Sequence record: SRR20825019_411
Reading direction: 5' to 3' (one strand)
DNA length: 62,248 nucleotides
Shown: in pieces, positions 6,038-37,956 of the stretch
Numbering within the stretch: the first letter of the stretch is position 1
Layout: each line of letters begins with the position of its first letter
The notes under the pieces: model-generated
What the model was told of the DNA's origin: nothing
Database searches by the model: none
The model's input: the letters and a program-made list of their open reading frames with translations, nothing else
Made by a program: the position numbers and the translations under genes

Positions 6038-6042
6038 ATTCG

Positions 6043-7164: not shown

Positions 7165-7213
7165 ATCTTTTCCTTAAAGGGGTGATTCCAGAACACACGG
7201 CCAATATGGCACT

Positions 7214-14052: not shown

Positions 14053-14182
14053 ATTTTTTAGGCTTAAGCCTCAAGGTGACTAAATGCCTCTTTCTTTAAC
14101 AACCTTAAGTCTGGTTTAATATAACTAATTAAAGCTTTCTTCGTGATTGTGTGGAGGTAACAGCGGCAAGTAAAACTTAAGG

Positions 14183-14608
14183 TTAGTCAATTTCACCTTG
14201 TCTCAAATTTTTTAGTGTGTCGTTGATGAGAGTCGAAGATGTGCCCTTAGTATAAGGAAAGTATATTACTTTAACTCCCAAGATTTTGAACTGTTTATCA
14301 TATTCTTCCCATTTTTTAGTTTTATACCAGTCGTCACCTACAAACATGATGTCAAATCTATACCTAGCGTGAGCCTCCAGCTTATCCATACTTGTCTGGG
14401 GTACGGCCAAGTCGGTGTACTTGATGTTGCGAATAAGTTCTATACGTTCTTCAAACGGAATAACGGACTTCTTTTTTTTGTAGGCTACAAGTTCATCTAC
14501 GGTAACTCCTACAATAAGTCGATCACACATAGACTTTGCGTTTCGCAGTAGGTTCAAATGTCCAACATGCAGTAGATCGAAGACGCCGGTTGTATATCCA
14601 ATGACCAT
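14183..14608 (-). CDS. tagD: Glycerol-3-phosphate cytidylyltransferase-like protein
   Basis: GVFDLLHVGH (HxGH), GDDW and YTKGTSST. Confidence 0.8.
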   Translation of the reverse strand: MVIGYTTGVFDLLHVGHLNLLRNAKSMCDRLIVGVTVDELVAYKKKKSVIPFEERIELIRNIKYTDLAVPQTSMDKLEAHARYRFDIMFVGDDWYKTKKWEEYDKQFKILGVKVIYFPYTKGTSSTLINDTLKNLRQGEID

Positions 14609-14609
14609 G

Positions 14610-16142: not shown

Positions 16143-16172
16143 ATGCTTTGGTACCTCGCGTGTAGTTTGTAA

Positions 16173-22256: not shown

Positions 22257-23330
22257 CTACTCTTGAGTTTTGTCAGGGTTATATGAGAGTTCTTGGTTGG
22301 CACGCTCAAGATCGTCAGGACGACCTACATCCAGCCAAGGTTCGTGCATTGGATAGGCTACCGTTCGCAGACTGGCCGCACGCAGCCTATCAAAGAGAGT
22401 GGGCATATCACAATGCGAATAACGTTCGAGATGTTCAAGGGCTCGTGGGGAAAAGGCATAGATGCCAGCATTGATGTGGCTGCGAGATGTTGGTTTCTCG
22501 TCGAAGCCATCAATATCTACACCGTTCATCCGCACCACGCCGAATGGGTTTGTCCATTCATAGACCCGAACCGCCATAACCGCATCGGCATCGTGCCGTG
22601 TGCGGAAGTCAATCATCTGGCCATAGTCTATATCGGTCAGTACGTCGCCATTGGTTACAATAAAAGGGTGTTTAGGTCGTGGATCTAGCAGTGACAAGGC
22701 GCCTGCGGTGCCAAGGGGCTGTTCTTCGGTGACATAATCGATAGCCACGCCAAAGTCTGATCCATCGCCGAAATGGTTGCGGATCATTCCACCCAGATAA
22801 TTCAGCGAAAAAATGAAATGACTGAACCCCTGGCTGCGGGCCCGCTCGACTATATGTTGTAGCATCGGTTTTCCTGCCACAGGCAGCATGGGCTTGGGGC
22901 AGTTTTCGGTGTAAGGCCGCAGCCGCGTACCTTTGCCCCCAGCCATCACCACCATGAAATTTTCGCGTGCGGGTGGGGTATCGAGTTCTTCCCACAAATG
23001 CAGTCCAATAGGGCGGCCATCCTCATTCACTACAGGCACCTGATGCATTTTGTTAGCAGTCATCAGAGCACGTACCAGTTTACGGTCTGTGCCTTCCGGG
23101 ACAACCAAGGGTGTGGTATTGGCAATTTTGCGGACCGAGTCTTCCATCGTCAGGCCTCGCAGCAGACCACGACGAAGATCTCCGTCAGTGATGGAACCGA
23201 AGAGACGACCATCTTCGCGCACACACAGCACCAGCCGTATAGCGACCTCGTTCAGGTTTCTAATGGCTTCTGCAAGTGTTGCGTCAACTGGCAGGATTGC
23301 CCTGCGCCAGCGATCTTCGAGGTCGGTCAT
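22257..23330 (-). CDS. ptmE: CBS-domain nucleotidyltransferase (PtmE/LegX)
   Basis: Tandem CBS (TDGDLRRGLL), then MAGGKGTRLRPYT, PKPML, PLGTAG and NGD. Confidence 0.88.
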   Translation of the reverse strand: MTDLEDRWRRAILPVDATLAEAIRNLNEVAIRLVLCVREDGRLFGSITDGDLRRGLLRGLTMEDSVRKIANTTPLVVPEGTDRKLVRALMTANKMHQVPVVNEDGRPIGLHLWEELDTPPARENFMVVMAGGKGTRLRPYTENCPKPMLPVAGKPMLQHIVERARSQGFSHFIFSLNYLGGMIRNHFGDGSDFGVAIDYVTEEQPLGTAGALSLLDPRPKHPFIVTNGDVLTDIDYGQMIDFRTRHDADAVMAVRVYEWTNPFGVVRMNGVDIDGFDEKPTSRSHINAGIYAFSPRALEHLERYSHCDMPTLFDRLRAASLRTVAYPMHEPWLDVGRPDDLERANQELSYNPDKTQE

Positions 23331-23386
23331 AATTGGCAATCCAAGTTAGTGATAATAGAATTTACAAACATTATGGTGCCCTTGCG

Positions 23387-24553
23387 CTATTCCTGTGAAG
23401 AAAAGGGCACGTCAAAAAAACATTTAGGTTCCGGAGTTGGTCTCCAGCCCTCGATCACGCGCACTGTTCGTTCCGAGGCGCCGCCGTCTCCATAAGGGTT
23501 GACAACGTCAGTAAGGGCCGTGCGGAAGCCGGGAGCATAAAGCTGTGTGATCGCGCTAGAGATGGCATGACGGTCCGCTGCACAGTCAATCACGCTGACG
23601 GCGCGAAGGCGACCATCCTGCCGCGCCCCGATATTGATTGTTCCTTTGGAAAACGATGGTACTTCAATCAGGCCGCTGGAAGAATTGCCGACAACCCCGT
23701 CCACATGCGTTAGGGCCGACAGGTACCGTCGCTGCCCCAGTGAGACGCACGAACAGGCTCGGTCGCGATGAGCGGACACGAATCCCTCAATCATGGAGAA
23801 CAGCGCACGGCCTTCAGTATCAGCATTGGGCATGGTGAAGATCAGATGCGCGTCTATTTTTTCAAGCGCGGCCAGCAGTTCTGTCATCTGATTCCTGGGG
23901 CTGTTGCCTGTCGCGGTCTCAGGATGAAAGGTTACGATCAGGTTACGATTCCCAAGACGGAATCCCAGTGCTTCCTCAAGTTCCGTCCGGCTCATAGGAT
24001 CAAGTTGTAGGATCCCGTCGATGCCGAAACCGCCGACATTCCAAACGCGTTCGGGGGCCTCGCCCATCTGGATGATCCGCTGGCGATAGGGCTCGGTGGC
24101 TGCGAAATGCAGGTGCGCCATTTTTGTTATGGCGTGCCGGATCGCGTCATCGAACGCTCCTTTAGTGATTTCACCACCATGCAGGTGGGCAATAGGAATT
24201 CTGCCGATCAATGCTGCGCTTGCAGCAGAAAGAATTTCGAACCTATCGCCCAGAACCACAACCAGATCGGGTTTGAGCTGCGCATATGCGTCTGCAAATC
24301 CCGTCAGTGCTAGTCCCATGGACTTGGTGATTCCGGTTGCGGAATCGGAACTCAGCAACATTTCCACTTTCCAGTCGATCTTGTTGCCATCGGACTCGAT
24401 GTTTTTCCACGTCGAACCAAATTCTGGTGACAGGTGCATACCTGTCGCGATTAACTGGAGCTGACATTTGTTGGACTCCCGCAATCCCTGGATAACCCAG
24501 CGCAACAGCCCATAGTCGGCTCGTGAACCCGTGATGACACAAACTCGCTTCAT
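23387..24553 (-). CDS. legG: Hydrolysing UDP/GDP-sugar 2-epimerase (NeuC/LegG)
   Basis: TGSRADYGL, GDRFE, HLHGGE, DDAIRHAITK, GNSSSG and NPYGDG. Confidence 0.92.
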   Translation of the reverse strand: MKRVCVITGSRADYGLLRWVIQGLRESNKCQLQLIATGMHLSPEFGSTWKNIESDGNKIDWKVEMLLSSDSATGITKSMGLALTGFADAYAQLKPDLVVVLGDRFEILSAASAALIGRIPIAHLHGGEITKGAFDDAIRHAITKMAHLHFAATEPYRQRIIQMGEAPERVWNVGGFGIDGILQLDPMSRTELEEALGFRLGNRNLIVTFHPETATGNSPRNQMTELLAALEKIDAHLIFTMPNADTEGRALFSMIEGFVSAHRDRACSCVSLGQRRYLSALTHVDGVVGNSSSGLIEVPSFSKGTINIGARQDGRLRAVSVIDCAADRHAISSAITQLYAPGFRTALTDVVNPYGDGGASERTVRVIEGWRPTPEPKCFFDVPFSSQE

Positions 24554-25563
24554 ATGGTAATTTCCTCATCTTCGGCGAAACTGCGGGGCGCGGGGCGCCC
24601 TATCACTTCGTCCCAGCGCATGGGCGAAATGCCGGTGCCAGGGCGCTTGGTAGTGAGATTGTCGTCCGAGAATATATCACCCTTGGAAATTGCTTTGGCT
24701 GCCACAATGGATTTACGTGCAACCGCCTTGTTGTGGGCTTCCGATTTGGTTGGTCGTTTCGTTGCACTGCCAAGAGCGGCTTCGATGCGGCGAATACCAT
24801 AGATCATGGCAGCAAGTTCGTCAGGCTCAAGGCTCGCCGCATGGTCGGGCCCAGGCAGCGAGCGATCCAGAGTGAAATGTTTCTCGATTACGCTCGCCCC
24901 CAGAGCGGTAGCGGCAATTGCAACCTCGATGCCTTCGGTATGGTCCGAATATCCAACCGATACGCCAAAGACTTGGCCAATGGTTTGCATGGCGAGAAGA
25001 TTTACTTCGTCAATTGGCACGGGGTATTCGGTGGTGCAATGCAGTACTGTGACCCTATCTCGCGGCAATCCAGCAGCCTCTAGCGTTTCAATAGCAGCTT
25101 CGATATCGCCTAGAGACGCCATTCCGGTCGATAGAATCACGTTGTGCCCAAAACCTGCGATTCGGCGCAAGTAGGGTAGGTTGGTGATTTCACCTGATGG
25201 TATCTTGAATTGCTCAAAACCCAGACTGGAAAGATAATCCAGACTGTCGAGGTCGAAGCCAGTCGAGAAAAAACCGATACGTCGGTTTTTACAATGAGTG
25301 ATGAGAGCGTCATGATCTGCACGACTTAATTCCAGTCGCTTCAGCATGTCCAACTGGCTGTCCGTGTCGCCATCGTTACGGGTTTGGTAATCCGCTTTTT
25401 GGGCGGCAATCGAAGCGATTTTCTCAGCCTTGAAAGTTTGGAACTTTACCAAATCGGCACCGGCGGCTGCAGCCGCATCCACCAGCTTCTTCGCTCTGTC
25501 CAGATCGCCGTTATGGTTAACACCAGCCTCCGCGATCACCAATACATGTTTTTTTCTGTTCAT
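24550..25563 (-). CDS. legI: N,N'-diacetyllegionaminate synthase (NeuB family)
   Basis: IAEAGVNHNG, KFQTF, KIPSGE, LSTGM, GYSDHT, IEKHFT and a C-terminal AFP-like domain (KRPGTGISP). Confidence 0.92.
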   Translation of the reverse strand: MNRKKHVLVIAEAGVNHNGDLDRAKKLVDAAAAAGADLVKFQTFKAEKIASIAAQKADYQTRNDGDTDSQLDMLKRLELSRADHDALITHCKNRRIGFFSTGFDLDSLDYLSSLGFEQFKIPSGEITNLPYLRRIAGFGHNVILSTGMASLGDIEAAIETLEAAGLPRDRVTVLHCTTEYPVPIDEVNLLAMQTIGQVFGVSVGYSDHTEGIEVAIAATALGASVIEKHFTLDRSLPGPDHAASLEPDELAAMIYGIRRIEAALGSATKRPTKSEAHNKAVARKSIVAAKAISKGDIFSDDNLTTKRPGTGISPMRWDEVIGRPAPRSFAEDEEITI

Positions 25564-26192
25564 TGGGCTTGCCTTACTGGCGTGTGCTTGATTAGGGTTG
25601 CATCAGGCAGGTCATGTTGGATTACACAGCCTGCTCCAATCACGCTGTCTTTACCAATGGTAATGCCGTTTTTCAAAATTGCTCCAGAGCCAATGAAACA
25701 TCCTTCTTTCACGGTAACATCGCCATTGACGCGTGCGCCTGTCGCAATATGGCAGTGGTCGCCAATCCGTGCACCATGTTCCACTAAGCTCAGGCTGTTG
25801 AGGATACAGTTCTGCCCCACGGTCGCAGCCGCATTCACAACTGCGCCATGCATGACCAGTGTCCCGTCACCCACAGTAGCATGGCGTGACACATATGCCC
25901 TTGGTGAGGTGATAACAGGTAGACTGGCACCGCTCTGGATAGCGGCGTTGAAGGCATTGCGCCGAGAATCCGGAGACTTGATCTGGCCGATCGTCACTAA
26001 CATGGCGGTGTATGTAGCTACAAAGTTGGGTAGGTCTCTGTCGGTGCCGATCACTGGGTAGCCCAGCACATCGCCCCGTTGCGCTAGGGCGCGCTCGAAA
26101 ATACCACCGATGATGAAGCGATTGTCTGCCTCAATCACGTCGATTGCTGCTTTACAGTGACCACCACCACCGATCAGAAACAAGCGCGTCAT
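25560..26192 (-). CDS. legH: NeuD/PglD-type sugar N-acetyltransferase (LegH)
   Basis: IGGGGH plus hexapeptide left-handed beta-helix repeats and the VEH motif. Start re-called at ATG 26192 (ATGA overlap with the legC stop). Confidence 0.85.
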   Translation of the reverse strand: MTRLFLIGGGGHCKAAIDVIEADNRFIIGGIFERALAQRGDVLGYPVIGTDRDLPNFVATYTAMLVTIGQIKSPDSRRNAFNAAIQSGASLPVITSPRAYVSRHATVGDGTLVMHGAVVNAAATVGQNCILNSLSLVEHGARIGDHCHIATGARVNGDVTVKEGCFIGSGAILKNGITIGKDSVIGAGCVIQHDLPDATLIKHTPVRQAQ

Positions 26193-27373
26193 GCCAATGC
26201 TCCTACCAGATGTGCCGACGAGGGTACGTTGATAATACGGGCTGCAAGTTCCACCGTGGTCGATAGTACAGCACGTGGAGTGTTCGCGTAAATTGGCAAG
26301 GTATGCAACGGTTCCCACACAGGGCGGGCCATTAGGCCAGCGCTGTTCAGGGTTTCTAGCACAATGTCCCGAGCGGCGGCGACGCGCGGCGCCAACATCA
26401 TAGTATTCAGCCAGTAGTTGGATTTTGCTCCTTCGGGCTCAATAAAAAACTGGAGGTCAGGGAGACCCGAAAAAGCGTTGATGTAGGCCTGCGCTAGTTG
26501 ACGTTTTTGTGCTAGCCGTGTGTTAAGTTGTGCCATCTGCGCAACACCGAGCGCTGCGTTCAAGTTAGGCATGCGATAATTATAGCCGATTTCGTCATGC
26601 ATGAAAGCCCAAGGGTGTGGCCGCTTTGCGGTGGTAGTTAGGTGTCTTGCGCGACGCGCAAGAGTTTCGTCATTGGTGACAATCGCGCCACCACCACCCG
26701 TGGTCAGGATCTTGTTGCCGTTAAAACTAAGTGCCCCGACCGACGCCAAGCTGCCACACGGTTTGTTGCCATAGACGCTGCCGAGGGCCTCGGCAGCGTC
26801 TTCTATCACCGGCAGGCCAAAGTCAGCGGCAACCACGTTCAGACCGTTCATGTCCACAGGGTGGCCAAATACATGCATTGGCACTATGGCTACCAGGCGG
26901 CGCCCTGTATTCCTATTGTAGAGCTGGCCTTCCCGGTGTTCACCAATTTGCTCAAGATGGTCTCGCAACGCCACAGGGCTGATACCGAGCGTTCGTTCCT
27001 CAATATCGACAAAATGAGGGATTGCGCCCAGATGACTGGTCGCGTTGGCTGTAGCGATAAACGTTAGACTGGGCATCAGTACTTCGTCACCGGGGCGGAC
27101 ACCCACAATTCGCATCGACACTTCAAGTGCAGCGGTGCCGTTGACTACTGCGACGCTGTATCTGGTTCCGCAGGCTTTCGCTATTTCTGCTTCGAAGCGA
27201 TCTACATATTGACCAACGGATGACACCCAGCCTGACTGGATACAGTCGCTGACCAGAGCTACCTCGTCGCCTCGGAATTCAGGTTCATGCAAGGGCACAA
27301 AACCTTCTGGGGCCCCAAGGAAGCTATATAGCTTGTCCTTAATTTCACCTGCGAAGGCGGAATGGTTTGTCAT
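26189..27373 (-). CDS. legC: LegC-family PLP aminotransferase
   Basis: VPLHEP, WVSSVG, NGTAAL, EDAAEALGS, SFNGNKILTTGGGG and GYNYRMPN. Start re-called at ATG 27373. Confidence 0.93.
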   Translation of the reverse strand: MTNHSAFAGEIKDKLYSFLGAPEGFVPLHEPEFRGDEVALVSDCIQSGWVSSVGQYVDRFEAEIAKACGTRYSVAVVNGTAALEVSMRIVGVRPGDEVLMPSLTFIATANATSHLGAIPHFVDIEERTLGISPVALRDHLEQIGEHREGQLYNRNTGRRLVAIVPMHVFGHPVDMNGLNVVAADFGLPVIEDAAEALGSVYGNKPCGSLASVGALSFNGNKILTTGGGGAIVTNDETLARRARHLTTTAKRPHPWAFMHDEIGYNYRMPNLNAALGVAQMAQLNTRLAQKRQLAQAYINAFSGLPDLQFFIEPEGAKSNYWLNTMMLAPRVAAARDIVLETLNSAGLMARPVWEPLHTLPIYANTPRAVLSTTVELAARIINVPSSAHLVGALA

Positions 27374-27380
27374 GATGGTC

Positions 27381-28382
27381 TCAGATATTGTAGCGGTCAG
27401 TTTTAAAATGGGCCAGATTGGCAGGATCCTGAAACCAGATAGCTGTTTCGGCGAGCCCACGCACAAAGCCTTCACGGCCACCGAACTCCGGTGACCAGTC
27501 AAACAGTTTCTGGGCTTTTTCCGTACTTGCGAAGAGCCGCTCTACCTCGCTGGCAACCGGGCGCACCCTGTCAGCATCCAGAACAACCTCCACTTCAGTC
27601 CCCATTGCCTCGGCAATAACAGTAACGGTGTCTCCAATAGAGATCTCGAACGCGCTGCCGATGTTGGTGACCTCACCAACAGTATTTTCTTTGTTCATTG
27701 CTTGGATAAAACCCCGGGCAGTATCTCGCACAAAAGTGAAATCCCGGGTGGGATGCAGTGCTCCAAGTCTAATCTGACGTGCCCCCCCCGCGATTTGACC
27801 TATGATGGTGGGAATCACGGCGCGGGCAGATTGGCGGGGTCCATATGTGTTGAACGGCCTAAGAACAGAAACGGGCATGTCGAAGGACCGCTGGAACGAC
27901 AGGGCCATCTGGTCTGCTCCGACCTTTGAGGCCGCATAAGGCGACTGTGCATTGATTGGGTGCTCTTCCGTTATTGGTACAAATTGTGCTGTGCCATATG
28001 TCTCTGACGTTGAGGTGCAAACGGTGTGCGTGATATCGTGGCGCCGGGCGGCCTGTAGGACATTAAGCGTGCCAGTGACGTTGGTTTGCACATAGGCGTC
28101 CGGCGCATGATAGCTGAAGGGTATGGCAATCAATGCGGCAAGATGTAGAACCCGATCACAACCTTTAACTGCGTCATCGACGCCATAAGGGTCACGTATG
28201 TCGCCGGCGATCACGTCAAAATGCCCTTCCACGTCTGACGCTGCATTATCCAGCCAGCCCCAGGAATTGAAAGAATTGTAATGAATGAAGGCTCGTACAT
28301 CGTGGCCTGCGCGCACCAGTGCTTCCACGAGATGCGATCCAATGAAGCCGTCGGCGCCGGTTACAAGTATCTTTTGGGTCAT
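27381..28382 (-). CDS. legB: NAD-dependent 4,6-dehydratase LegB
   Basis: TGADGFIGSHL, YNSFNSWGWLD, HLAALIAIPFSY, STSETYG, SPYAASK and RPFNTYGPRQSARAVIP. Confidence 0.93.
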   Translation of the reverse strand: MTQKILVTGADGFIGSHLVEALVRAGHDVRAFIHYNSFNSWGWLDNAASDVEGHFDVIAGDIRDPYGVDDAVKGCDRVLHLAALIAIPFSYHAPDAYVQTNVTGTLNVLQAARRHDITHTVCTSTSETYGTAQFVPITEEHPINAQSPYAASKVGADQMALSFQRSFDMPVSVLRPFNTYGPRQSARAVIPTIIGQIAGGARQIRLGALHPTRDFTFVRDTARGFIQAMNKENTVGEVTNIGSAFEISIGDTVTVIAEAMGTEVEVVLDADRVRPVASEVERLFASTEKAQKLFDWSPEFGGREGFVRGLAETAIWFQDPANLAHFKTDRYNI

Positions 28383-28484
28383 ATTGCAGTTTCAACTATT
28401 CTAAAGAAAGTAAAAGTTTTGGGAAAAAGCCTTTGCCGATACACGTAGATATAATCCCTGTTGTTCCAAACGTCCACCGTAAGG

Positions 28485-28852
28485 TTATCGCCGTTTTAGG
28501 GCAAATCTATTGTCGTTACCCGCTTCCATTTCAGCCCGCAGATTTTTAGCCTTCGCCTTGAGAATTTCGTGCTCGTTGATTTTATGAGAAAGAAATTTTT
28601 TGGCAATTTCTGCATTTTCGGCGATGCCTTTTGGGGCTGGAATGTAAGCGTAACGGCGTCTGTCTCTTGCCGAAGTAAGGTTTCCAAGCTTTTTAGAGTC
28701 CTACGCCGATAAGCGCGTCGAGCGCATAGGGTGCACCAATGCTGATGCCGCCTACTTGGGCCAACTTGTGCAGAGACATTTTTGGTTTTCCAAAAGAATA
28801 CGTAGCTTGGTGAATCTTATATCCTCTTGAAATCACTCCGGCGTCCCACCAT
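28485..28852 (-). pseudogene. Frameshifted EPS-associated MarR-family transcriptional regulator
   Basis: Stitching frames on the minus strand gives MVGRRSD/QEDIRFTKLRILLEN/PKMSLHKLAQVGGISIGAPYALDALIGVGL/KLGNLTSARDRRRYAYIPAPKGIAENAEIAKKFLSHKINEHEILKA...*. This matches the family pattern (QED..F..LR.L..NP..SQR.LA..GIS.G..Y.L.AL..GL.K..NF....K..Y.Y.LTPKG) with three frameshifts. Confidence 0.8.
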
Positions 28853-29152
28853 AAACGCCTTCTTAATACCTGCGTGTCTGCTCCGCACGTTGTCTCACCA
28901 ATCGATTCTGGGACTTAACCTAAATAATTCGGCCAATAGTTGGGTGGCATTGTTCAATTTTTAGCGGTAGCATTCCTGCATGCCATAAACAATATCTTTT
29001 TAAAATAGTCACTTATAGAAAGTTCTGTTAAAAAACCTATTTGCCAGAGCATTGGAATCCCACTTTGATCCTAAACTAGGTATCTATCGCTCTAATGCGA
29101 TGGGTTCAAAATGAATCTAAACCTAACAAATCCGGATCGAAATGGCACTCGT

Positions 29153-30490
29153 CTATGCGCGGTCTCCTCCCGAAATCAGGTATGCTCCTGCTGCAAAAAG
29201 GCTTGTGAATAGGTATGAATTTGCGGGCATCTGCATTGAAAAGTCCACAACAGAATGGAGACCTAGCTGGACAAAAATTGAGACAGTAAGCATGATAAAT
29301 ACATCGTACTGCCCCCTCCCCCGCATAGCTGAAAACAGTTTAATAGCGGTATAGATAAACGATATAACCACAATGGAGCCAATTATACCGCCTGCGGTCA
29401 TATAGATTTCCAAAAGATCACTGTGCCCCTTGTTGATAGATACGGGAACAGGCCCAGGAAATACATCCAGTGTACGATATCGCGCAAACACTTCGGAAAA
29501 AGTCCCAAGTCCATAGCCCGTAAAAGGTCTTTCTTGAATTGCTTCAATAATATTCCCGTATATTTTATATCGCATATCATCTGGCTCGAAGTTGATCATA
29601 CGACTTCCATACATGCCCCCACTAAGTTCCAGCGTGACGGCAAAAAACAGGACTATCGACACGATGAACGCTATATTTTTTCTTGGTTCATTGCTGGCTT
29701 CCTTTGAAGCCTTCTTCTTATTTGAGAATAATGTAAGCAGCATAAGGAAGCTCGCGAACAAACTAGTTGATATTCCGCCCTTTGAACCTGTCAACAGTAG
29801 GCTGGTAAATATCAAGAACAAGCTTGAAATCAACATGGTAACTAAATAGTAATTTGGGGTAAAGAAATGTAATAATAAATGTCTACGCGAAATGTCTCTA
29901 CTTGGCCGTTGTAGGTAGCTCCATAATGTATAAGAAAGTATACATTGGAACCCCATGCCTGCATATGCAGCGAAGCTATTTCGGTTCACGAATGTAGATG
30001 TGAGCGCTCCATGTGACGCCCATTTTTTATACCAGAGAACAAAATTGTTGCCTGAGAAATATTCTGCCAGCCCATAAATGCAGTAAACTGTGACTATCAA
30101 TCCGGCGGTTAGAACAAACTTAGGAACGCAGGCTTTTTGCTTAAAACTGTTGAAAACTAGCAAAAACCAGACAATATGTGAGACTAGGAACAGGGCTGTC
30201 GTAATCGTATGTTGCGGAGTTGCAGACCACCCGAAAAGGACCTGCAGCATGCCCCAAAAGACCAGAAGAACAAGAGCCCCAATCAGAAGATGGAGTGCTC
30301 TAGGCACTGAGGAGAATTTTAAACTGTCCTGCCGCAAAACAAAAACAAAACCGAGTACACCAATATAGACGACCCAAAAGTATTTCCAAACCGCAGGGTT
30401 GCTAGCAAAAGGAAGCGGTGACAAAAATAACAATAAATAGATATATCTCACTGCACCAAGCTCCGCCGGTCCATAGCATGTGGAAGTCAA
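29153..30490 (-). CDS. O-antigen ligase-like (Wzy_C/WaaL) membrane protein
   Basis: Multi-TM. Contains STFVNRNSFAAY, TGSKGG, RPFTGYGLGTF, HSDLLE and HSVVDFSMQMPAN. Start is uncertain. Confidence 0.82.
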   Translation of the reverse strand: MTSTCYGPAELGAVRYIYLLLFLSPLPFASNPAVWKYFWVVYIGVLGFVFVLRQDSLKFSSVPRALHLLIGALVLLVFWGMLQVLFGWSATPQHTITTALFLVSHIVWFLLVFNSFKQKACVPKFVLTAGLIVTVYCIYGLAEYFSGNNFVLWYKKWASHGALTSTFVNRNSFAAYAGMGFQCILSYTLWSYLQRPSRDISRRHLLLHFFTPNYYLVTMLISSLFLIFTSLLLTGSKGGISTSLFASFLMLLTLFSNKKKASKEASNEPRKNIAFIVSIVLFFAVTLELSGGMYGSRMINFEPDDMRYKIYGNIIEAIQERPFTGYGLGTFSEVFARYRTLDVFPGPVPVSINKGHSDLLEIYMTAGGIIGSIVVISFIYTAIKLFSAMRGRGQYDVFIMLTVSIFVQLGLHSVVDFSMQMPANSYLFTSLFAAGAYLISGGDRA

Positions 30491-30970
30491 CTCGAATTGT
30501 ATTTGTCCCTGCAGAAACCGTGGGCTCCATTTTCATGACTCTGAGGTTAGATCTCTGACAACGACCGGTTTTTATCATACTTGCAAAGTGGGTGATAGAA
30601 AAAATCGAGAAACAGCTTGGTACTCCTCCCGGCGCCCCATGGAGGAACCCATTCCCGGTAGTCATCGCGGACCATATTAATATGCAGAGGTTTACAGAGG
30701 CGACAGGGTGAAAGCAGTTCCGCCGTTGGCCCTAGGGCTGCCCGAAATCGACGTGATGACATAAACATTTCCAGCCTGTTTCTAAACTCCCTAGAAAGCG
30801 ACTTGAAGGAGGTTGCACTCTGAAAAGTGGTCCAGTCGGTGGGGCGAACTTATAGTTTGCCGCTTTATACCTAATGCCGATCACAAATCACTATCGCCCA
30901 TATGGCTCAGAGAGAGTATCGTCACATATGATGCCTAGCACCACTGGTGTCCGTACCAATAATAGGACGT

Positions 30971-32152
30971 ATGTTTTCCAGAAAGAAGAAGATATCTTAC
31001 ATTGCCCGAGCTAAATTCCGCGACCAACAGAAGCGCTTCGGCATCAAACAATCTGACCGGCTGTCCCATATGTATGTCATCGGTAAAACTGGCACCGGCA
31101 AAACCACACTTCTTGAAAACCTGATCCTTCAGGATATCCGCGCGGGTCGTGGTTTGGTTCTGCTCGACCCACACGGTGATCTTGCCGAGCGTATCGCAGC
31201 CCGCATCCCATTATTCCGTTCTGACGATCTCATCTATTTCAACGCCACCGACCCGCGTCAGCCATATGGCTACAATCCCCTGCGGCGCGTGTCTGCGGAT
31301 TTACGACCTCTCGTGGCGTCCGGTGTGTTAGAGGTTTTCAAGAAACAATGGTCCGGTAATAGCTGGGGCGTGAACATGGAGCATATCCTGCGCAATGCCT
31401 TACTGGCGCTCTTGGACATGCCTCAGACGACGCTGGCCGACATTCCTCGTTTGCTCACGGACGAAGAGTATCAGACGACCGTTGTTGGCCATGTCACTAA
31501 CCCGCAGGTGAAGCGGTTCTGGGAGCAGGACTTCGAGGCGGGCGGTTTCAATCGGGCAAGTGCACTTGGGCCAGTGCTCAACAAGGTAGGTGCCTTTCTC
31601 GCGGACCCGATGCTGTACCGTGTGCTCACAACACCGGAGCAACCACTCTCTTTCCGACGCATCATGGACGAGCGTAAAATTCTGATCGTCAATTTGGCCA
31701 AAGGGCGTATTGGCGATGATGCTTCTTCCCTGCTTGGTGGACTATTGGTGACGATGTTGACGCTTGCAGCCTTCAGCAGGGCCGATCAGCCAGAGCGTGA
31801 GCGGGTTCCCTTTTTCCTCTATGCGGATGAGTTCCAAAACTTCGCCACGGATAGCTTTGCGAATGCCGTGTCGGAACTCCGTAAAACAAAGGTCGGGCTG
31901 ATTTTGGCTCATCAGCATTTGCACCAGATACCCGAGAATATCCGCGCGGCCATACTCGGCAATGTGGGCACCTTGATATCTTTCCGGGTGGGGGCGCAGG
32001 ATGCGCCCTATATGGCCCGAGAATTCTACCCGGATATCAGTCAGGAAGACCTGATCGGGCTTCCCAATTATCATATTTACCTGAAACTTATGATCAATGG
32101 CGTGCCGTCACGTCCATTCAGCGCAGAGACACTTCCGCCTCAATTTTCCTAA
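30971..32152 (+). CDS. VirD4/TraD(TrwB)/HerA-type P-loop ATPase, no TM anchor
   Basis: HMYVIGKTGTGKT Walker A, LLDPHGDL, LYADEFQNF Walker B, SELRK..GLILAHQ and LGNVGTLISFR. Start re-called at ATG 30971 (AGGA upstream). Confidence 0.85.
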   Translation: MFSRKKKISYIARAKFRDQQKRFGIKQSDRLSHMYVIGKTGTGKTTLLENLILQDIRAGRGLVLLDPHGDLAERIAARIPLFRSDDLIYFNATDPRQPYGYNPLRRVSADLRPLVASGVLEVFKKQWSGNSWGVNMEHILRNALLALLDMPQTTLADIPRLLTDEEYQTTVVGHVTNPQVKRFWEQDFEAGGFNRASALGPVLNKVGAFLADPMLYRVLTTPEQPLSFRRIMDERKILIVNLAKGRIGDDASSLLGGLLVTMLTLAAFSRADQPERERVPFFLYADEFQNFATDSFANAVSELRKTKVGLILAHQHLHQIPENIRAAILGNVGTLISFRVGAQDAPYMAREFYPDISQEDLIGLPNYHIYLKLMINGVPSRPFSAETLPPQFS

Positions 32153-32221
32153 AAGTAGCGTTAATGCCATTTATACGTTATCTTTGCACCCTATTGGCTA
32201 GCACAGCATGAGGGGGAAATC

Positions 32222-32743
32222 ATGGAATTGCTGTTCAAGCGCTCGCAGGCTGCGAGTGAGTTCGGTCGTGTTTCATTCAAACTATTTGGCAAAACTGAGT
32301 TTGATGACGAAGAGCATGCGCTCATCAAAAAGTACCGGTTTGACGAAGCGGTCTTGATCTACACCTACCAGCCAACACTCCTCAAACAGACACTTGTGAG
32401 AAGCTTCGGTGTATTTTTCCTTGCATGGATTGTCTTCTTTGCCCTGTTTGGTGCGAGCACGATGTTTGCCCTCGCGCTGGGGGTCTTATCAGGCGGTGGT
32501 TTCGGTTATTGGTATTATCATCAGAACCGGGAGACCATCTTTGTCCGCGATCTTATCCATGGCCGGTATTTCAAATGCGACAGCGTCATAGAACTGGCGC
32601 AGAAGGAAGCGTGGCTTGAAACCATCTGTGCCTTTCTCAGGCAGGTAATGGAAAGCGCCAAACATTGGGACGGTGAGGTTCGGTTTCCGATTGAGGCTCT
32701 TCCCAAAGATGAAGCCAAGAAGATGATCATTAAGGGCCTCTGA
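32222..32743 (+). CDS. Hypothetical two-TM membrane protein
   Basis: GAGGGGG SD, hydrophobic hairpin at about aa 60-100, and TGATG coupling to the next gene. Confidence 0.75.
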   Translation: MELLFKRSQAASEFGRVSFKLFGKTEFDDEEHALIKKYRFDEAVLIYTYQPTLLKQTLVRSFGVFFLAWIVFFALFGASTMFALALGVLSGGGFGYWYYHQNRETIFVRDLIHGRYFKCDSVIELAQKEAWLETICAFLRQVMESAKHWDGEVRFPIEALPKDEAKKMIIKGL

Positions 32744-35253
32744 TGCGCTTCCACATCGCGGCGCGCTTTCATGCTTTGGTAAACGGCCTGTTCCGGCCCC
32801 CGGAGGAGCGACAAACATGGTTCCTCTACCATAGGGTCCTGCGCCATCTGGAGAATGAAGGGCTGGAGGATCAGGCGGGCCGGGTTGGTCTTGCTCTCAT
32901 GCTTGCAGGCGACCTGGCTGATACCTTTGGCTTGTCGGAGGACCACCCACACCGGGAGAAGCTGGCGAGCTTGGTGGCTCAGGTGATCGACTATGAAGAC
33001 CTGTTTGTCTTGCCTCATATCGACTGGGACGTTTCCTACACGGTGGCGGAGCATTTTGACCTGCGCAGCCTGCTGCGCACGCAGCTTGATCTCATAAAGG
33101 ATTTTAAGGACACCTATCAGGCTATGCTGGATGCGTTCACTGTATCCCTGAACAGCTTGTATTCAGTGCCATTCCCGAACCCTGATAAAGCGGGAGCAGG
33201 GGCACAGACCTTTGATGCCGACATGCTGAGCAGTATTCCCCATTGCGGTGCGGTGGTGGAAGGCATGATCATGCCCTTTTTTGATGAGGACATTACCGAC
33301 AAGGATTTATTCCGCCGCTTGCGTCACAGGTTTGACTTCAACCTGGAGCGGGCGTCGGGAAAATCGCCGGATGTATCCCCCATCAAAGACCCTGAGAAGC
33401 TGGCGCAGACCTATCTGGCCGGAACACCCTTTCTGCCCTTTCTTGATGACCAAGTGATTATCTCTATCCCACAGTCAGTCCGCTTTGAGCATACCCATGT
33501 GCTGGGTGGCACCGGGCACGGTAAGACACAGCTTCTCCAGTATCTCATCCATCATGACATTGAGCAGGCCGCAGTTGATAAACTGTCCATCGTGGTGATC
33601 GATAGCCAAGGCGACATGATCGGCAAGCTCTCTCGCATGCAGACGCTCTCTCCCACGGCGGAAAACTCTTTGTCAAACCGGCTGATCATCATTGATCCTA
33701 CCGACATCGAGCATCCACCAGCGCTCAACCTGTTTGATGCTGGACGAGACAGACTGGAGGACTACACACCGCGCCAACGGGAACTGGCTTTCAATTCCCT
33801 TGTAGACATCTACGGGCGTTTCTTCGGCTCGCTCTTGGGTGCAGAGCTAACCGCAAAACAAGGTGCAGTGTTCCGTTATCTTGCGCGTCTAATGCTGACT
33901 ATTGAAGGCGCGACCATTCATACGCTGATTGAGCTGATGGATAATCCCGCCCCATTCAAGACGCACATCCAGAAGCTCGATCCCACAGCCAGACGCTTCT
34001 TTGAGCAGGAGTTCTCACGCGGCGGCTTCAGTTCCACCCGGCAGCAGATCAAGCAGCGGCTTTATACCGTGCTCTCGATCCCCACCTTTGACCGTCTATT
34101 CTCGGCCCCGAAGTCCAAGATCAGCTTTTTTGATGCACTGAACGACGGCTCCATCATTCTGGTGAACACGGCCAAGGACCTTCTGAAGGCTGATGGTGCG
34201 GCCATCTTCGGTCGCTTTGTATTGTCGCTTATTGAGCATGCCATCATGGAGCGGGCCACGCTCAGCGAGAACGAGCGTACACCCACGTTCCTCTATGTGG
34301 ACGAAGCTCAGGACTATTTTGACGAGACCATCGAGACAATGTTGGTGCAGGGGCGGAAGTATAATTTCGGCCTGACGCTGGCGCACCAGAACTTGGTTCA
34401 GCTCTCAACCCGGTTGAATGCAGTGCTGGCTGGCAATACAACGATCAAGCTGGCTGGTGGTGTGACGGACAGGGATGCGCGGTCTCTGGCATCCGACATG
34501 CGCACGACAGCGGACATGCTGCTCTCAATGAGGAAGAGCACAGATCGAACAGAGTTTGCGCTGTCGGTACGCAACAAGACATCACATGCCCTGAAGGTGG
34601 ATATCGAGCTTGGGTGCCTTGAACGCAGCGCCATGATGGCGGACGGCGAGTATGCGGACTTGCTAGCCAAAAACCGTGAGCGTGTGTGTTATGAGCCGGA
34701 GGCAATCCCGTCTCAGCCTGTTCGCAAGCCACAGGCTGCTATAGCAGCGCCAGAAACCGCCGACAACGCGCCGGAACCAGAGCATGCGGGCCATCGTGCC
34801 ATTCAGGAGCAAATCGCCGCCAAGGCCAAGAAACACGGTTTTGCGGCCAGTGTCGAATATGTGTTGCCAAATGACAAACGCATCGATGTGGCACTGTTTG
34901 GGCATGGCCTAAGGATTGCAGTGGAGGTGTCCGTCACGAACCGGCAGGAATATGAACTCTCCAACATTGAGAAGGCGCTGGAGGCTGGTTTTGGCACAGT
35001 GTGGATGGTGGCCCCAAACGCCGAGCACCGGAGCAGGCTGGAACAGTTTGTGCGGGACAAGCTGGCGATGGAAAAATGGTCTCGGGTGCTGTTCGGCTCA
35101 ATGGACAATGTGGCAGCATGGCTCGGGCGCTATGAGCCGCCAGCATATGATCGATCGCGCATTGCAGGATATGACGTCGAAACAGAGTTTGTGGTTCCTG
35201 AAAATGCCCAAGAGCATCGTTATCGGACGGAACGATTACGACTTCTCCTGTAG
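32743..35253 (+). CDS. VirD4/TraD/HerA-type ATPase with a C-terminal PD-(D/E)XK-like domain
   Basis: HTHVLGGTGHGKT Walker A, IDSQGD, LYVDEAQDY Walker B and QGRKY..GLTLAHQ. After a Pro/Ala linker the C-terminus reads H...VEYVLPNDKRIDVAL...IAVEVSVT. Confidence 0.8.
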   Translation: MRFHIAARFHALVNGLFRPPEERQTWFLYHRVLRHLENEGLEDQAGRVGLALMLAGDLADTFGLSEDHPHREKLASLVAQVIDYEDLFVLPHIDWDVSYTVAEHFDLRSLLRTQLDLIKDFKDTYQAMLDAFTVSLNSLYSVPFPNPDKAGAGAQTFDADMLSSIPHCGAVVEGMIMPFFDEDITDKDLFRRLRHRFDFNLERASGKSPDVSPIKDPEKLAQTYLAGTPFLPFLDDQVIISIPQSVRFEHTHVLGGTGHGKTQLLQYLIHHDIEQAAVDKLSIVVIDSQGDMIGKLSRMQTLSPTAENSLSNRLIIIDPTDIEHPPALNLFDAGRDRLEDYTPRQRELAFNSLVDIYGRFFGSLLGAELTAKQGAVFRYLARLMLTIEGATIHTLIELMDNPAPFKTHIQKLDPTARRFFEQEFSRGGFSSTRQQIKQRLYTVLSIPTFDRLFSAPKSKISFFDALNDGSIILVNTAKDLLKADGAAIFGRFVLSLIEHAIMERATLSENERTPTFLYVDEAQDYFDETIETMLVQGRKYNFGLTLAHQNLVQLSTRLNAVLAGNTTIKLAGGVTDRDARSLASDMRTTADMLLSMRKSTDRTEFALSVRNKTSHALKVDIELGCLERSAMMADGEYADLLAKNRERVCYEPEAIPSQPVRKPQAAIAAPETADNAPEPEHAGHRAIQEQIAAKAKKHGFAASVEYVLPNDKRIDVALFGHGLRIAVEVSVTNRQEYELSNIEKALEAGFGTVWMVAPNAEHRSRLEQFVRDKLAMEKWSRVLFGSMDNVAAWLGRYEPPAYDRSRIAGYDVETEFVVPENAQEHRYRTERLRLLL

Positions 35254-35271
35254 CGGGTGTATCAGTTCCTG

Positions 35272-36192
35272 TTAAAGCGCTGAGATTATCCTATCAAAGG
35301 ATGAGATTGCCTGATCGAAGGTGATTTTGTTGTCGTCCTGCGCGTAGGACATGGCATCTACATATTGTGTATATTCGGCTCGATATTCTTTTTCTTCAGA
35401 CGTCAGGATCGATTGAGCTTGGGTGACCCTGTCAGCCAGCGATTGTTCGGGGTCGGTGCCGCCCCGTCCTCGGTCTGCGGCAAAGGTGGCGTGAATCATG
35501 GCAATAAAATCCGTATTGGCCAGAGCCATTTTTTCTAGCGCGGAAAGGTCGTGCAGATGTCGGATGATGGTAGGGTCGTTCTCTGGGGAACCAAGTACCT
35601 GCTGGCGGTCTCTTGCTATCATGCGCCAGAGTAATGCGCTAAATTTATCAGCTGCAGTTTTGACCGGCGTAATGCAGGCGATATTGGCTTCAGCCTCGCC
35701 GCCCATAAATTCTGCTGTGAAAGAGCGTATAAGTCTATGCTCTACCGGCAGCGCTCCTTCTTTGAAGCTCATCTCCAGTTGAAGATTTGCTCGCAGCGCA
35801 CCGTCCAGTTGTTGTGTATGTGGATAAGAAATGTTGAAGCGGAAGAAGTTACTATTGTCTTTGGATATGATGTTTCCCTCTTCAACAGATAACGCCGAAT
35901 ATCCCCGTATCAGGCCAATGATTTCTTTCCGGTACGCTCTGCGTCCCGCTCTGGAGAGTGGCTCGCTGGCCATGACCTGAAAATCAATGTCCTCAGAAAA
36001 TCGCTGTATGAGGCCATAGCCTTTAGACAGGCTGGTACCACCTGAAAATACGGGCGTTATATACTCGGTAGTGTATTCCGATATCAATTTCAAAACCTGA
36101 ACCGCATACCAATCCTTTTCGATAAAGGACGGGGCAACGCCAAGTTCGGTTGCAATTTCCAGAATTGCCTCGGCGCTAGGCGTATTGCTCAT
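35272..36192 (-). CDS. abiEii: AbiEii/AbiGii nucleotidyltransferase toxin (type IV TA)
   Basis: IEKDW, FSGGTSLSKGYGLIQRFSEDIDF, DK..AL and RHLHDL. Confidence 0.9.
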   Translation of the reverse strand: MSNTPSAEAILEIATELGVAPSFIEKDWYAVQVLKLISEYTTEYITPVFSGGTSLSKGYGLIQRFSEDIDFQVMASEPLSRAGRRAYRKEIIGLIRGYSALSVEEGNIISKDNSNFFRFNISYPHTQQLDGALRANLQLEMSFKEGALPVEHRLIRSFTAEFMGGEAEANIACITPVKTAADKFSALLWRMIARDRQQVLGSPENDPTIIRHLHDLSALEKMALANTDFIAMIHATFAADRGRGGTDPEQSLADRVTQAQSILTSEEKEYRAEYTQYVDAMSYAQDDNKITFDQAISSFDRIISAL

Positions 36193-36592
36193 AGGTCACG
36201 AAGCTTCCATTATACCCAATCTTGCGAGATACGCGGCCCTTAACACCGATAACGCGGCCTGTAGGGACTTGGGTTGTCTTGCCCTCATTATAGGCCTTCT
36301 CGTAGCGGGACTGGGTGATTTTTACCCCACGTTTGACCAGTGCGGCTTTGGCCAGTTCCTGGATTGGCCGTTCGAGCGTTGGTTTGCCAGTGATTGGCGA
36401 AATTCTGCTGCGTGCGTAGACGCCCTGACCGATCTTAATGAGAAAGCCGGACTTGGTCATGCGTCTGAAAACGCGACCGATCTGATCATTACCGGACAAA
36501 TCTTTGAAATCGGCAGGTACGAATACAGGCACCGCACTTCGTTTTATGCGGTACTTCATTCTACTCTCCAATGTCTGTTTTATCGGCATCAT
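36176..36592 (-). CDS. abiEi: AbiEi-type (DUF6088-like) wHTH antitoxin
   Basis: VFVPADF, G.LIKIGQGVY and TTQVPTG. Overlaps the toxin start. Start re-called at ATG 36592 (or 36589). Confidence 0.8.
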   Translation of the reverse strand: MMPIKQTLESRMKYRIKRSAVPVFVPADFKDLSGNDQIGRVFRRMTKSGFLIKIGQGVYARSRISPITGKPTLERPIQELAKAALVKRGVKITQSRYEKAYNEGKTTQVPTGRVIGVKGRVSRKIGYNGSFVTYEQYA

Positions 36593-36705
36593 AACGGCTT
36601 TCAAATTTACGACATTATTGTACTGCAAATTTAAGACATATGCAATGAGTAAATACATTATAAATATATTAGGAATCATATAGTTATTTATATTCGCGAA
36701 AAATA

Positions 36706-36736
36706 CGAGTCATAGAATTATAAAATCTATGACTCG
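36706..36736. repeat. Perfect 11-bp inverted repeat (CGAGTCATAGA-N9-TCTATGACTCG) between integrase and abiEi
   Basis: Read directly. Could be an AbiEi operator or an integrase terminator. Confidence 0.75.
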
Positions 36737-36787
36737 CTGAATCGTTACCTGGTGCGACCGATATGGACGAAGGGATAAGCTCTTCGG

Positions 36788-37771
36788 CTAATCCAGCATT
36801 TGCGCCAGTTTCGTTGCGGACTCGTTATAATAAATCATCAGGCTCTTAAGGTCCCGGTGTCCGACCGTGCGTGCAAGAGCAAGTACATCGAGCTTTTTGG
36901 ACAGCCGTGTGATCGCCTCATGTCGGGTGTCGTGGAAGTGTAGGTTTGTGATCTCCGCTTTTGCCACTGCCTGCCGAAAGAAGGTCGAGGCCATCCGAGA
37001 ATCTATCCGAAGCGCTGTCTGGAGGAACTGGGTGCACAGTTCCACTGCCTTTGAGGAGAGCGGAACCTGACGCTGGTCCCCATTCTTGGTTTGGTCCAGT
37101 TGCACATACCGCTCGGCTAGGTGCACTGAGGAATCGTCCATACTGCACATCTCCCCAAGCCGCATGCCAGTCTCTATGGCAAGTAGGAAGTAGAGTCCCA
37201 ATAGCTGCCTTCTGGTGCGGATAGGGGAATACTCCTGATACCCTAGGACCATGATGATGCGATCGATTTCATCTTCGGTGATCAGGCGATCACGTGGACG
37301 TGGTTGCTTGGGGCGGTCAAGATCATGCACGGGATTTACTTTGAGCCAGCCCCATTCCTTGCGCGCCCTCGTGAAGACGGCGGAGATGAGATTGAGGTCC
37401 CGGTTCACTGTGCCCGGCGACACCTGCTTGAGGCGGGCATCTCGGAATTTCGCCGTATGCTGGGTCTTGAGGTCTACAAGACGAACGCGGGATAACGGAT
37501 CACGACCGAGAGCGTTTAGCCGGATGAGTTCCCAACGGGCTCCGCGCTTGGTCGGGGAGACTTCCTTGGCATAGCGCGTGAAGGCATCCCGTACGAGGAG
37601 GCGCTCTGCCATCGCTTCTTCAATGACGATTTTTCCCGACGAGATTTCGGCTTCTTTGAGGATGGCCCATTCCCGTGCCTCGGCTTTTGTGCTATATGTT
37701 GCGGACAGGTAGATACCCTGTTTTCGAACTTCGACGCGCCATTTGGTACCGCGTTTCCTGAATGTGGCCAT
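36788..37771 (-). CDS. int: Tyrosine recombinase/integrase (Rci/HP1-like)
   Basis: N-terminal arm-binding segment (MATFRKRGTKWRVEVRK). Intact catalytic set ETGMR, TKNG, FHDTRHEA, GHRD and YYN. GGAGA SD. Confidence 0.93.
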   Translation of the reverse strand: MATFRKRGTKWRVEVRKQGIYLSATYSTKAEAREWAILKEAEISSGKIVIEEAMAERLLVRDAFTRYAKEVSPTKRGARWELIRLNALGRDPLSRVRLVDLKTQHTAKFRDARLKQVSPGTVNRDLNLISAVFTRARKEWGWLKVNPVHDLDRPKQPRPRDRLITEDEIDRIIMVLGYQEYSPIRTRRQLLGLYFLLAIETGMRLGEMCSMDDSSVHLAERYVQLDQTKNGDQRQVPLSSKAVELCTQFLQTALRIDSRMASTFFRQAVAKAEITNLHFHDTRHEAITRLSKKLDVLALARTVGHRDLKSLMIYYNESATKLAQMLD

Positions 37772-37940: not shown

Positions 37941-37956
37941 CCTCTTCTGGGCACCA
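37941..37956 (+). repeat. att-site copy of a tRNA-Leu 3' end (CCTCTTCTGGGCACCA)
   Basis: Matches the 3' end (...GTTCGAGT-CCTCTTCTGGGCACCA) that I recall for alphaproteobacterial tRNA-Leu(CAG). It ends in CCA, the upstream bases do not continue the tRNA, and it lies 170 bp from the integrase start. Confidence 0.8.

Follow-up and report, generated by a model that had tools for sequence, protein, structure and literature searches.

A coupling-protein-like gene trio with a predicted fused nuclease domain as a candidate mobilisation module of integrative islands at tRNA-Leu

What is the function of a compact gene module that combines two ATPases resembling conjugative coupling proteins with a small partner protein, and that lies beside an integrase in a region where secretion genes are not found? 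Such a module is encoded at positions 30,971 to 35,253 of a 62,248-nucleotide stretch from sequence record SRR20825019_411, the whole of which is called the window here, and consists of the genes for ATPase-1, a small partner and ATPase-2 (the trio). A sequence-only reading of this DNA had proposed a non-canonical system, either a minimal mobilisation machine or a membrane-linked defence complex. Comparative data favour the mobilisation side of this proposal and fit the defence side less well; we consider it about an even chance (probability roughly 0.5) that the trio is the mobilisation module, i.e., for DNA processing and coupling, of an integrative mobilisable island at tRNA-Leu. Central to this reading is a predicted nuclease domain at the C-terminus of ATPase-2, which the earlier reading had overlooked.

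Two coupling-protein-like ATPases and a predicted nuclease domain

Relatives of ATPase-2 were collected by a contig scan employing one genome per species, which yielded 304 stretches, and the best 80 of these were studied together with 10-kb flanks. The gene content of these loci (small partner, ATPase-2, its C-terminal domain, and Replic_Relax) was scored by profile search, and an ATPase-2 open reading frame (ORF) was present in 79 of the 80 loci; for several loci from metagenome-assembled genomes (MAGs) the taxon labels are doubtful. Alignments were made of 20 ATPase-2 relatives (A1), 32 C-terminal domains (A2), and 33 small partners (A4). An ATPase-2 with the C-terminal nuclease domain is referred to as long form and one without it as short form.

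Both ATPases exceed the gathering score (20.5 bits) of the Pfam family TrwB_AAD_bind (PF10412), with 30.8 bits for ATPase-1 and 28.9 bits for ATPase-2, and both match DUF87 and TraG-D_C weakly. Among NCBIfam models, partial matches to TraD remain far under the cut-off, and CedD and CedB, which are DNA-translocating ATPases of archaea, are matched weakly. When compared by sequence with solved structures, ATPase-1 matches DotL and TrwB, and its Kordiimonas homologues are 77-85% identical. The cores of ATPase-1 and ATPase-2 share 27% identity over 356 amino acids (E 4e-35), and on sequence grounds the two can be regarded as paralogues that are far nearer to each other than to any type IV coupling protein (T4CP) of solved structure. 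In a Foldseek search with the ATPase-2 model, TrwB (1e9s) is the top match (E 1.8e-9, TM-score by target 0.55), followed by HerA complexes, and further structural neighbours are HerA-NurA, SIR2-HerA, and TdpAB. The model contains an all-alpha insert at residues 343-452, and its motifs (Walker A, Walker B, and AHQ) do not vary among the 20 relatives of A1. Both ATPases are thus TrwB/VirD4-like in that each combines a nucleotide-binding with an all-alpha domain, and their earlier assignment to the T4CP/HerA superfamily holds, as do the motifs quoted for it (GKTGTGKT, YADEFQ, and AHQ in ATPase-1; GGTGHGKT, YVDEAQ, and AHQ in ATPase-2).

Among PADLOC defence models, mad8 is matched by both ATPases (2.4e-15 and 3.8e-13), and the best match of the trio to HerA models reaches 1.2e-7, as compared to 4.7e-46 for the true HerA of locus L001, a relative from K. 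aestuarii. Since the true HerA of L001 also matches mad8 (5e-18), an identity as mad8 was rejected as generic. Genuine defence proteins of these islands score between E 1e-46 and 1e-240, the best value for the trio being the mad8 match of 2.4e-15. MADS is an operon of eight genes, mad1-mad8, that specify a methyltransferase, a kinase, and two ATPase-nuclease modules according to PMC13662399; the other seven MADS genes are absent here, the trio being flanked by AbiE, an integrase, and glycan genes.

A hydropathy scan detects no N-terminal transmembrane (TM) segment in ATPase-1, as had been claimed, or in ATPase-2; the hydropathy peak of ATPase-1 (1.71 at residue 259) corresponds to an internal segment kept across its homologues. 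In three short-form loci (L049, L070, and L078), the N-terminus of ATPase-2 itself contains a strongly hydrophobic helix, at residues ~12-36. The small partner belongs to a family of 1439 representative proteins (E ≤ 1e-3), and its gene immediately precedes that of ATPase-2 in 71 of the 74 loci whose upstream sequence extends over 700 bases or more. The exceptions are L049 and L070, in which a different 119-amino-acid ORF accompanies the N-terminal TM helix of ATPase-2, and L064, in which the ATPase-2 ORF is broken. The two-TM protein described earlier does possess a single long hydrophobic hairpin, which is a ~40-residue insertion found in 10 of the 33 aligned small partners, namely in the Kordiimonas clade and the short-form clade. 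To judge from the sequences, clades differ in whether the membrane anchor would be supplied in cis, supplied in trans, or missing altogether. The idea that the small protein provides the anchor in trans would therefore apply to the hairpin clade and not to most of the family, given that only those 10 have the hairpin and that three relatives have a TM segment in cis.

The AlphaFold model of ATPase-2 (mean predicted local distance difference test, pLDDT, 83) is divided into four parts. The N-terminal region, known from the earlier reading as being of unknown kind, appears as a confident helical domain of about 235 amino acids (residues 1-235, pLDDT mostly 83-95), and neither this N-domain nor the small protein matches any Pfam, NCBIfam, PADLOC, or PHROG family or any named look-alike in the ESM Atlas. 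Following the motor, a disordered linker (residues 655-682) leads to a C-domain (residues 684-836) that forms a compact alpha-beta-beta-beta-alpha-beta-alpha fold, with a pLDDT of 87 when folded alone. With VIA-align, the strong structural neighbours of the C-domain are restriction-endonuclease-fold proteins exclusively: Upx (9wuf; Z 10.1, root-mean-square deviation 2.5, 101 residues aligned), AF1548 (Z 10.0), NucS (9.2), Can2 (8.9), PaqCI (8.7), BspD6I (8.6), and FokI (8.3). The Cap4 nuclease is also among its structural neighbours. Foldseek gives no match for the C-domain at E ≤ 1e-3, its best being Can2 at E 1.3e-3.

Six residues (H684, Q688, E705, D715, E738, and K744) show no variation in either A1 (20 sequences) or A2 (32 sequences), and three more (E728, S730, and N741) are constant throughout A1 and near-invariant in A2. 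The resulting pattern is E...D...ExS with a conserved lysine on the following helix. In a Pfam scan of the 32 C-domains only faint restriction-fold matches appear, and none to PF13814; a search for standalone homologues returned five close fragments and nothing else. On the basis of the model and these residues, the C-terminus of ATPase-2 is predicted to be a PD-(D/E)xK-fold nuclease domain, so that the protein as modelled comprises the N-domain, a T4CP-like motor, and a putative nuclease. In the literature outside subscription journals, which the search did not cover, no description of a T4CP-nuclease fusion or of the island family was found.

Relaxase genes, islands, and distribution of the module

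The C-domain is fused to ATPase-2 in 63 of the 79 loci, and in none of these 63 is a Replic_Relax (PF13814) gene present within 10 kb. Among the 16 loci with C-domain-less ATPase-2, 12 have a Replic_Relax gene, which is situated directly downstream in 11 cases; the remaining four are L047 (no Replic_Relax in 5.6 kb), L056 and L064 (both broken), and L065 (contig end). PF13814 represents the MobC relaxase superfamily in CONJscan (PMC5357655), and MOB_C relaxases are described as PD-(D/E)XK enzymes for which, according to PMC12857230, a covalent DNA intermediate has not been observed. By gene arrangement, the predicted nuclease domain seems to occupy the place of the MOB_C relaxase gene of sister elements. 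The earlier statement that the system has no relaxase is correct in so far as no canonical relaxase is encoded nearby and is, in view of this domain, too strong. In an ATPase-2 tree (FastTree, 74 sequences, after removal of the truncated rows L004, L005, L008, L031, L056, L064, and L076), a split with full support sets 11 short forms apart, and two Rhodoplanes sequences branch elsewhere; its topology departs from host taxonomy. Only two good matches were obtained among 72,556 plasmids, both being short forms followed by a gene for a ‘replication-relaxation family protein’. On these plasmids, L088 (NZ_CP081110.1) and L089 (NZ_AP019788.1), the order is small gene, T4CP-like gene, replication-relaxation gene, and the MOB-suite label in PLSDB is non-mobilizable for both.

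At least 1959 proteins (E ≤ 1e-3) of 8000 candidates scored are relatives of ATPase-2, the best name among them being ‘type IV secretory system conjugative DNA transfer family protein’. Full-length relatives are 38-89% identical, the closest coming from Kordiimonas, and a reading of the trio as chance ORFs is thereby ruled out. Intact long-form ORFs of 849-976 amino acids occur in 61 loci from many families, which, together with the close linkage of the small gene to ATPase-2, bears out that the module is conserved across genomes. ATPase-1 is encoded in 48 of the 79 loci, or in 37 of the 51 where both flanks reach at least 9 kb, at varying positions, and the exact order of the window's trio was seen again in 17 loci. 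Of 32 genomes of the genus, 4 possess the trio, and two of those carry two copies. One K. aestuarii contig holds two copies (L001 and L029), and so does genome G022; these copies are diverged, with ~41-43% identity, and in the second K. aestuarii copy ArdC and a serine recombinase adjoin ATPase-1. Near-identical ATPase-2 sequences appear under disparate taxon labels (L040, L042, L036, L022, L059, L060, and others), i.e., a Klebsiella MAG, Nitrotoga, Nitrosomonas, Saccharibacteria, Acidobacteria, Flavobacteriaceae, and Pirellulaceae, which reflects either wide horizontal spread or else mis-binned metagenome contigs.

The commonest neighbour in the 80 loci is a large serine recombinase (30 loci by clustering, 32 by profile); others are tyrosine integrases (14), ArdC (11), RadC (9), DUF3768 (6), and an Xre-type helix-turn-helix (HTH) protein with a 169-amino-acid partner (14-15). 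A recombinase of any kind is encoded within 10 kb in 41 of the 80 loci; if only the 52 loci with a length of 21 kb or more are considered, the number is 29. No clear VirB4 is found within 10 kb in the 80 loci, the single marginal match having E 5.7e-4, and the VirB4 model PF03135 has no match in the four complete-looking host genomes that carry the trio. The absence of a nearby type IV secretion system (T4SS) claimed earlier is thus confirmed, and the system deserves to be called non-canonical as a conserved T4CP-like pair without T4SS or canonical relaxase. Genome G001, the nearest to the window, contains two ORFs of 527 and 542 amino acids (G001:C1:474541-487354) with stronger TrwB_AAD_bind matches (E 6e-27 and 1.3e-23); there is no PF03135 or TIGR00929 VirB4 match in G001, and these ORFs possibly belong to another kind of element. 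Fragments of a Mg-chelatase/ComM-like protein (N-terminal ~494 amino acids and C-terminal ~190 amino acids; clusters C9 and C16) recur beside these islands (L016, L024, L026, L033, L037, L041, L043-L045, L058, L059, L080, and others), in L058 immediately beside the serine recombinase, which suggests that part of the island family is inserted in comM.

G001 is without the trio and is 100% identical to the window from position 37941 on, where, straight after the integrase, a 16-nucleotide copy of the 3' end of tRNA-Leu(CAG) is found. In G001 itself, a distance of 50.6 kb separates an intact tRNA-Leu(CAG) from the repeat of its 3' end. The window contains no tRNA and no Rfam family, so that the left end of the island must lie past the window start or be decayed. 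Both ends are seen in L001 from K. aestuarii, a complete island of 18.6 kb in which tRNA-Leu(CAA), TmtA-like cargo, the trio, Dcm-HerA-Vsr cargo, the integrase, and a 15-nucleotide repeat follow one another and in which no tra genes are present. In L002, ParDE, an AbiEi-like gene, and an integrase resembling that of the window come after the trio, with a Pbe defence system on the opposite side of the trio, and in L003 a serine recombinase immediately precedes the trio. One metagenome contig matches window positions 22500-31387 save for 3 letters, and another has 8298 other letters in place of positions 35059-36816, the AbiE region. In these comparisons the trio and the integrase form a constant backbone, with a slot between them for changing defence cargo. 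AbiE and the integrase do adjoin the trio, as had been noted, with the qualification that the AbiE pair is swappable cargo outside the system.

Defence genes at these loci include PbeA/PbeC in L002 (3144-7998; E down to 1e-240), a TmtA-like NOV_C protein (3810-8111) and Dcm, an unknown protein, HerA, and Vsr (12748-18587) in L001, and Dcm, HEF_HK/Response_reg_2 proteins, and Vsr in L003 (12994-20291); TIR-SLOG is found at other loci.

Gene layout of the window

The features of the region are compiled in Table 1. The three ORFs of the module are intact and co-directional, and the small gene, coding for 173 amino acids as had been read, runs with its TGA stop into the ATG of ATPase-2 (TGATG at 32741-32745), in agreement with the translational coupling proposed earlier. 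The trio and the AbiE pair are the only genes between the O-antigen-ligase gene and the integrase; as the sequence-only reading had stated, this interval contains neither virB genes nor a rep gene, and no relaxase of the HUH or Rep_trans type. Positions 1 to 21 kb of the window contain polysaccharide/glycan genes exclusively.

Table 1. Features of the trio and its flanks in the window
Feature	Position	Strand	Remark
O-antigen-ligase gene	29153-30490	-	left neighbour of trio
ATPase-1 ORF	30947/30971-32152	+	soluble, no TM segment; ATG at 30971 gives 393 amino acids, matching length of closest homologues
Small partner, 173 amino acids	32222-32743	+	conserved family without Pfam model; TM hairpin ~58-100
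ATPase-2, 836 amino acids	32743-35253	+	N-domain, T4CP-like motor, and predicted nuclease domain
ATPase-2 N-terminal helical domain, residues 1-235	32743-33447	+	AlphaFold, no family match
ATPase-2 T4CP-like core, residues ~236-650	33448-34692	+	GGTGHGKT, YVDEAQ, all-alpha insert
ATPase-2 predicted PD-(D/E)xK-fold domain, residues 684-836	34792-35253	+	model and conserved residues
AbiEii toxin	35272-36192	-	PADLOC 2.6e-82; Pfam AbiEii 2.2e-30
AbiEi antitoxin	36176-36679	-	PADLOC 2.6e-46
Tyrosine integrase, 327 amino acids	36788-37771	-	95% identical to trio-adjacent integrase of L002, 68% to that of L001
16-nucleotide copy of tRNA-Leu(CAG) 3' end, right island end	37941-37956	+	identity with G001 begins here

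Window positions 1-37940 lie within a strain-variable segment with a G+C content of 41-56%, as compared to 55-59% for the shared flank, and its counterpart in the nearest genome (G001:C1:2261295-2312009) is bounded by tRNA-Leu(CAG) and the repeat of its 3' end. The segment includes a nonulosonic-acid/O-antigen locus (NeuB, epimerase, Wzy, and ligase), and this glycan locus may itself be island-borne or belong to a tandem array of islands. The mobile DNA of G001 at the same tRNA-Leu site is different, comprising an HTH-HipA pair, a transposase of the IS110 family, and a 915-amino-acid integrase-domain protein (L087, 2915-4560 and 8199-10946).

Mobilisation and competing explanations

We read the trio as a mobilisation module because of the TrwB_AAD_bind matches, the likeness to TrwB and DotL, the fusion-or-separate complementarity of nuclease domain and Replic_Relax gene, and the short forms on plasmids, and further because of the recombinase, ArdC, RadC, and DUF3768 neighbours, the constant backbone, and the discrete island L001; the patchy spread (4 of 32 genomes), a tree unlike taxonomy, and the weak PADLOC scores of the trio point in the same direction. 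After excision of the island, the restriction-fold C-domain of ATPase-2 would nick or otherwise open the island DNA, doing the job of the separate relaxase of sister elements, which belongs to MOB_C, a family whose cutting involves no covalent intermediate. Next, ATPase-2 would use its TrwB-like motor to pass the DNA into the T4SS channel of a helper conjugative element. ATPase-1 probably partners ATPase-2 in mixed or stacked rings, and the small partner, whose pairing with ATPase-2 is suggested by gene linkage, would hold ATPase-2 at the membrane by means of the TM hairpin present in this clade. The tyrosine integrase lies on the far side of the variable cargo slot.

The variant that we favour, and to which we give an even chance, is a system like CloDF13 MobB/MobC in which nuclease and coupling ATPase have become one protein. 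A T4CP of their own is encoded by MOBC1 plasmids, among them CloDF13, whose MobB also aids relaxation (PMC7431656), and the proposed arrangement resembles CloDF13 in combining a coupling ATPase of its own with a restriction-endonuclease-type enzyme while borrowing the T4SS of a helper (PMC7431656, PMC12857230). In short-form relatives, the T4CP-like gene is indeed followed by the Replic_Relax gene. Unlike in CloDF13, the nuclease of the trio is fused to the ATPase and is without detectable sequence similarity to MOB_C, the TM segment is located on a separate small protein or absent, and the trio has an extra 235-residue N-domain, a second ATPase, and a chromosomal island as its site. Streptococcal integrative mobilisable elements (IMEs) of class 8, consisting of a VirD4 coupling protein, MobC, and a serine integrase (PMC5357655), are similar as compact elements that join a coupling protein and a PD-(D/E)xK-type relaxase to a site-specific recombinase, and serine recombinases are the commonest neighbours here. 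In contrast to those elements, which belong to another phylum and have VirD4 and a separate relaxase, the islands studied here show a fusion, a small partner, and a second ATPase, with a tyrosine integrase in the window. With TrwB, VirD4, and DotL the ATPases share the nucleotide-binding and all-alpha domains and the best structure and sequence matches; however, identity amounts to 13-16%, there is neither an N-terminal transmembrane domain (TMD) in cis nor a linked T4SS, and extra N- and C-domains are present.

Several observations weigh against a mobilisation function. T4CPs stripped of their TMD are reported in PMC7431656 as non-functional; a TM segment is absent from the ATPases of most relatives, the hairpin is missing from 23 of the 33 small partners that were aligned, and for this reason a cytoplasmic location seems likely for most of the family. 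The complementarity between fusion and separate gene, as traced on the sequence tree, would correspond to about 2 evolutionary events and not to 12. A comparison of the C-domain with Replic_Relax (hhalign, A2 vs A3) gives a probability of 2.2%, which is not significant, and the C-domain is without the winged-helix N-domain of MOB_C. The second, paralogous ATPase has no explained role, and fusions of an ATPase to a restriction-fold nuclease are also common in defence. Furthermore, no recombinase is present within 10 kb in 39 of the 80 loci, VirB4 is missing from the four host genomes, no origin-of-transfer (oriT) candidate emerged from repeat, promoter, and terminator scans plus an alignment of upstream DNA, and this upstream DNA shows no conservation among four relatives.

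The chief alternative, which we regard as unlikely though worth serious attention, is nuclease-NTPase defence, in which a hexameric HerA/T4CP-like motor, formed by ATPase-2 with ATPase-1, would load on invading DNA for degradation by the fused PD-(D/E)xK domain, with the small protein as regulator or membrane tether and the whole module as cargo. In its favour, ATPases and C-domain have structural neighbours of this kind (HerA-NurA, SIR2-HerA, and TdpAB; Upx, Can2, and Cap4), both ATPases match mad8, MAD7/MAD8 being an ATPase-nuclease module (PMC13662399), most family members look cytoplasmic, the four host genomes are devoid of VirB4, and the trio sits among defence genes such as AbiE, Pbe, the TmtA-like and Dcm-HerA-Vsr genes, and TIR-SLOG. 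The resemblance to HerA-NurA, SIR2-HerA, and MAD7/MAD8 lies in a hexameric FtsK/HerA-superfamily ATPase being paired with a nuclease. Yet the PADLOC matches are weak and generic and the seven other MADS genes absent, the ATPase has the all-alpha domain of T4CPs, and the trio remains constant while the defence genes around it change. In addition, sister elements swap the nuclease domain for a MOB_C gene and occur on plasmids, and ArdC, RadC, and DUF3768 are neighbours typical of transferred elements.

Transfer might also proceed without any T4SS, the island's own motors exporting the cut DNA as in ICETh1 TdtA or actinomycete TraB and the recipient taking it up by competence or another route. 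For this possibility, which we judge improbable, there is the precedent of ICETh1, according to PMC5365140 an island of 14 kb that is inserted at a tRNA, has no T4SS, and encodes a recombinase as well as a hexameric, membrane-associated ATPase and two nucleases required for transfer. It shares with the islands studied here the small size, the tRNA site, the recombinase, a translocase-like ATPase, nucleases, and the missing T4SS, a likeness by description; TdtA works with separate NurA-like and type II restriction enzymes (PMC5365140). The VirB4 searches and the weak CedD and CedB matches would agree with it. However, the trio has neither a linked channel nor a linked outer-membrane component, most relatives are without TM segment, the ATPases are nearer to the T4SS-docking T4CPs than to FtsK/TraB, and ArdC neighbours point to classical single-strand conjugative entry. 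A role in maintenance of the excised circle, i.e., in its replication, resolution, or segregation instead of transfer, is quite improbable: Replic_Relax is named for replication and relaxation alike, the complex may be cytoplasmic, and FtsK/HerA-type motors act with nucleases in chromosome resolution and end resection, but neither a replication initiator nor a partition gene is consistently linked and T4CP-specific features are present. That the trio is a remnant of a decayed integrative and conjugative element whose T4SS and relaxase were lost is extremely improbable. Although T4CP-like genes adjoin an integrase without T4SS, the 61 intact long-form loci span many families, L001 is complete at 18.6 kb without tra genes, and the left side of the window consists of glycan genes; trios always accompanied by relaxase and full T4SS, as this origin would demand, were not encountered, no clear VirB4 being present within 10 kb in the 80 loci.

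Returning to mobilisation, the module may tentatively be taken to define an unnamed, widespread class of islands without classical relaxase, in which a TrwB-like motor would carry its own restriction-fold nickase and be assisted by a small partner and a second ATPase. It is possible, though doubtful, that such a ‘cut-and-couple’ machine links defence cargo to passing T4SSs or, in the TM-less majority, to some undescribed route.

No way of moving is known for a large number of genomic islands, among them islands by which defence systems are shuttled. If the mobilisation reading is true, it would provide a transfer mechanism for a large island family (304 stretches; 1439 small-partner proteins) and would mean that a coupling ATPase can be fused with its DNA-cutting partner, which bears on how the non-covalent MOB_C and MOB_H relaxases pass DNA to the T4CP, posed as an open question in PMC12857230. 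If the trio serves defence instead, it would represent a new, T4CP-derived type of nuclease-NTPase system. As a mobilisation module, it would also disclose a blind spot in mobility typing, since standard tools call such elements non-mobilisable.

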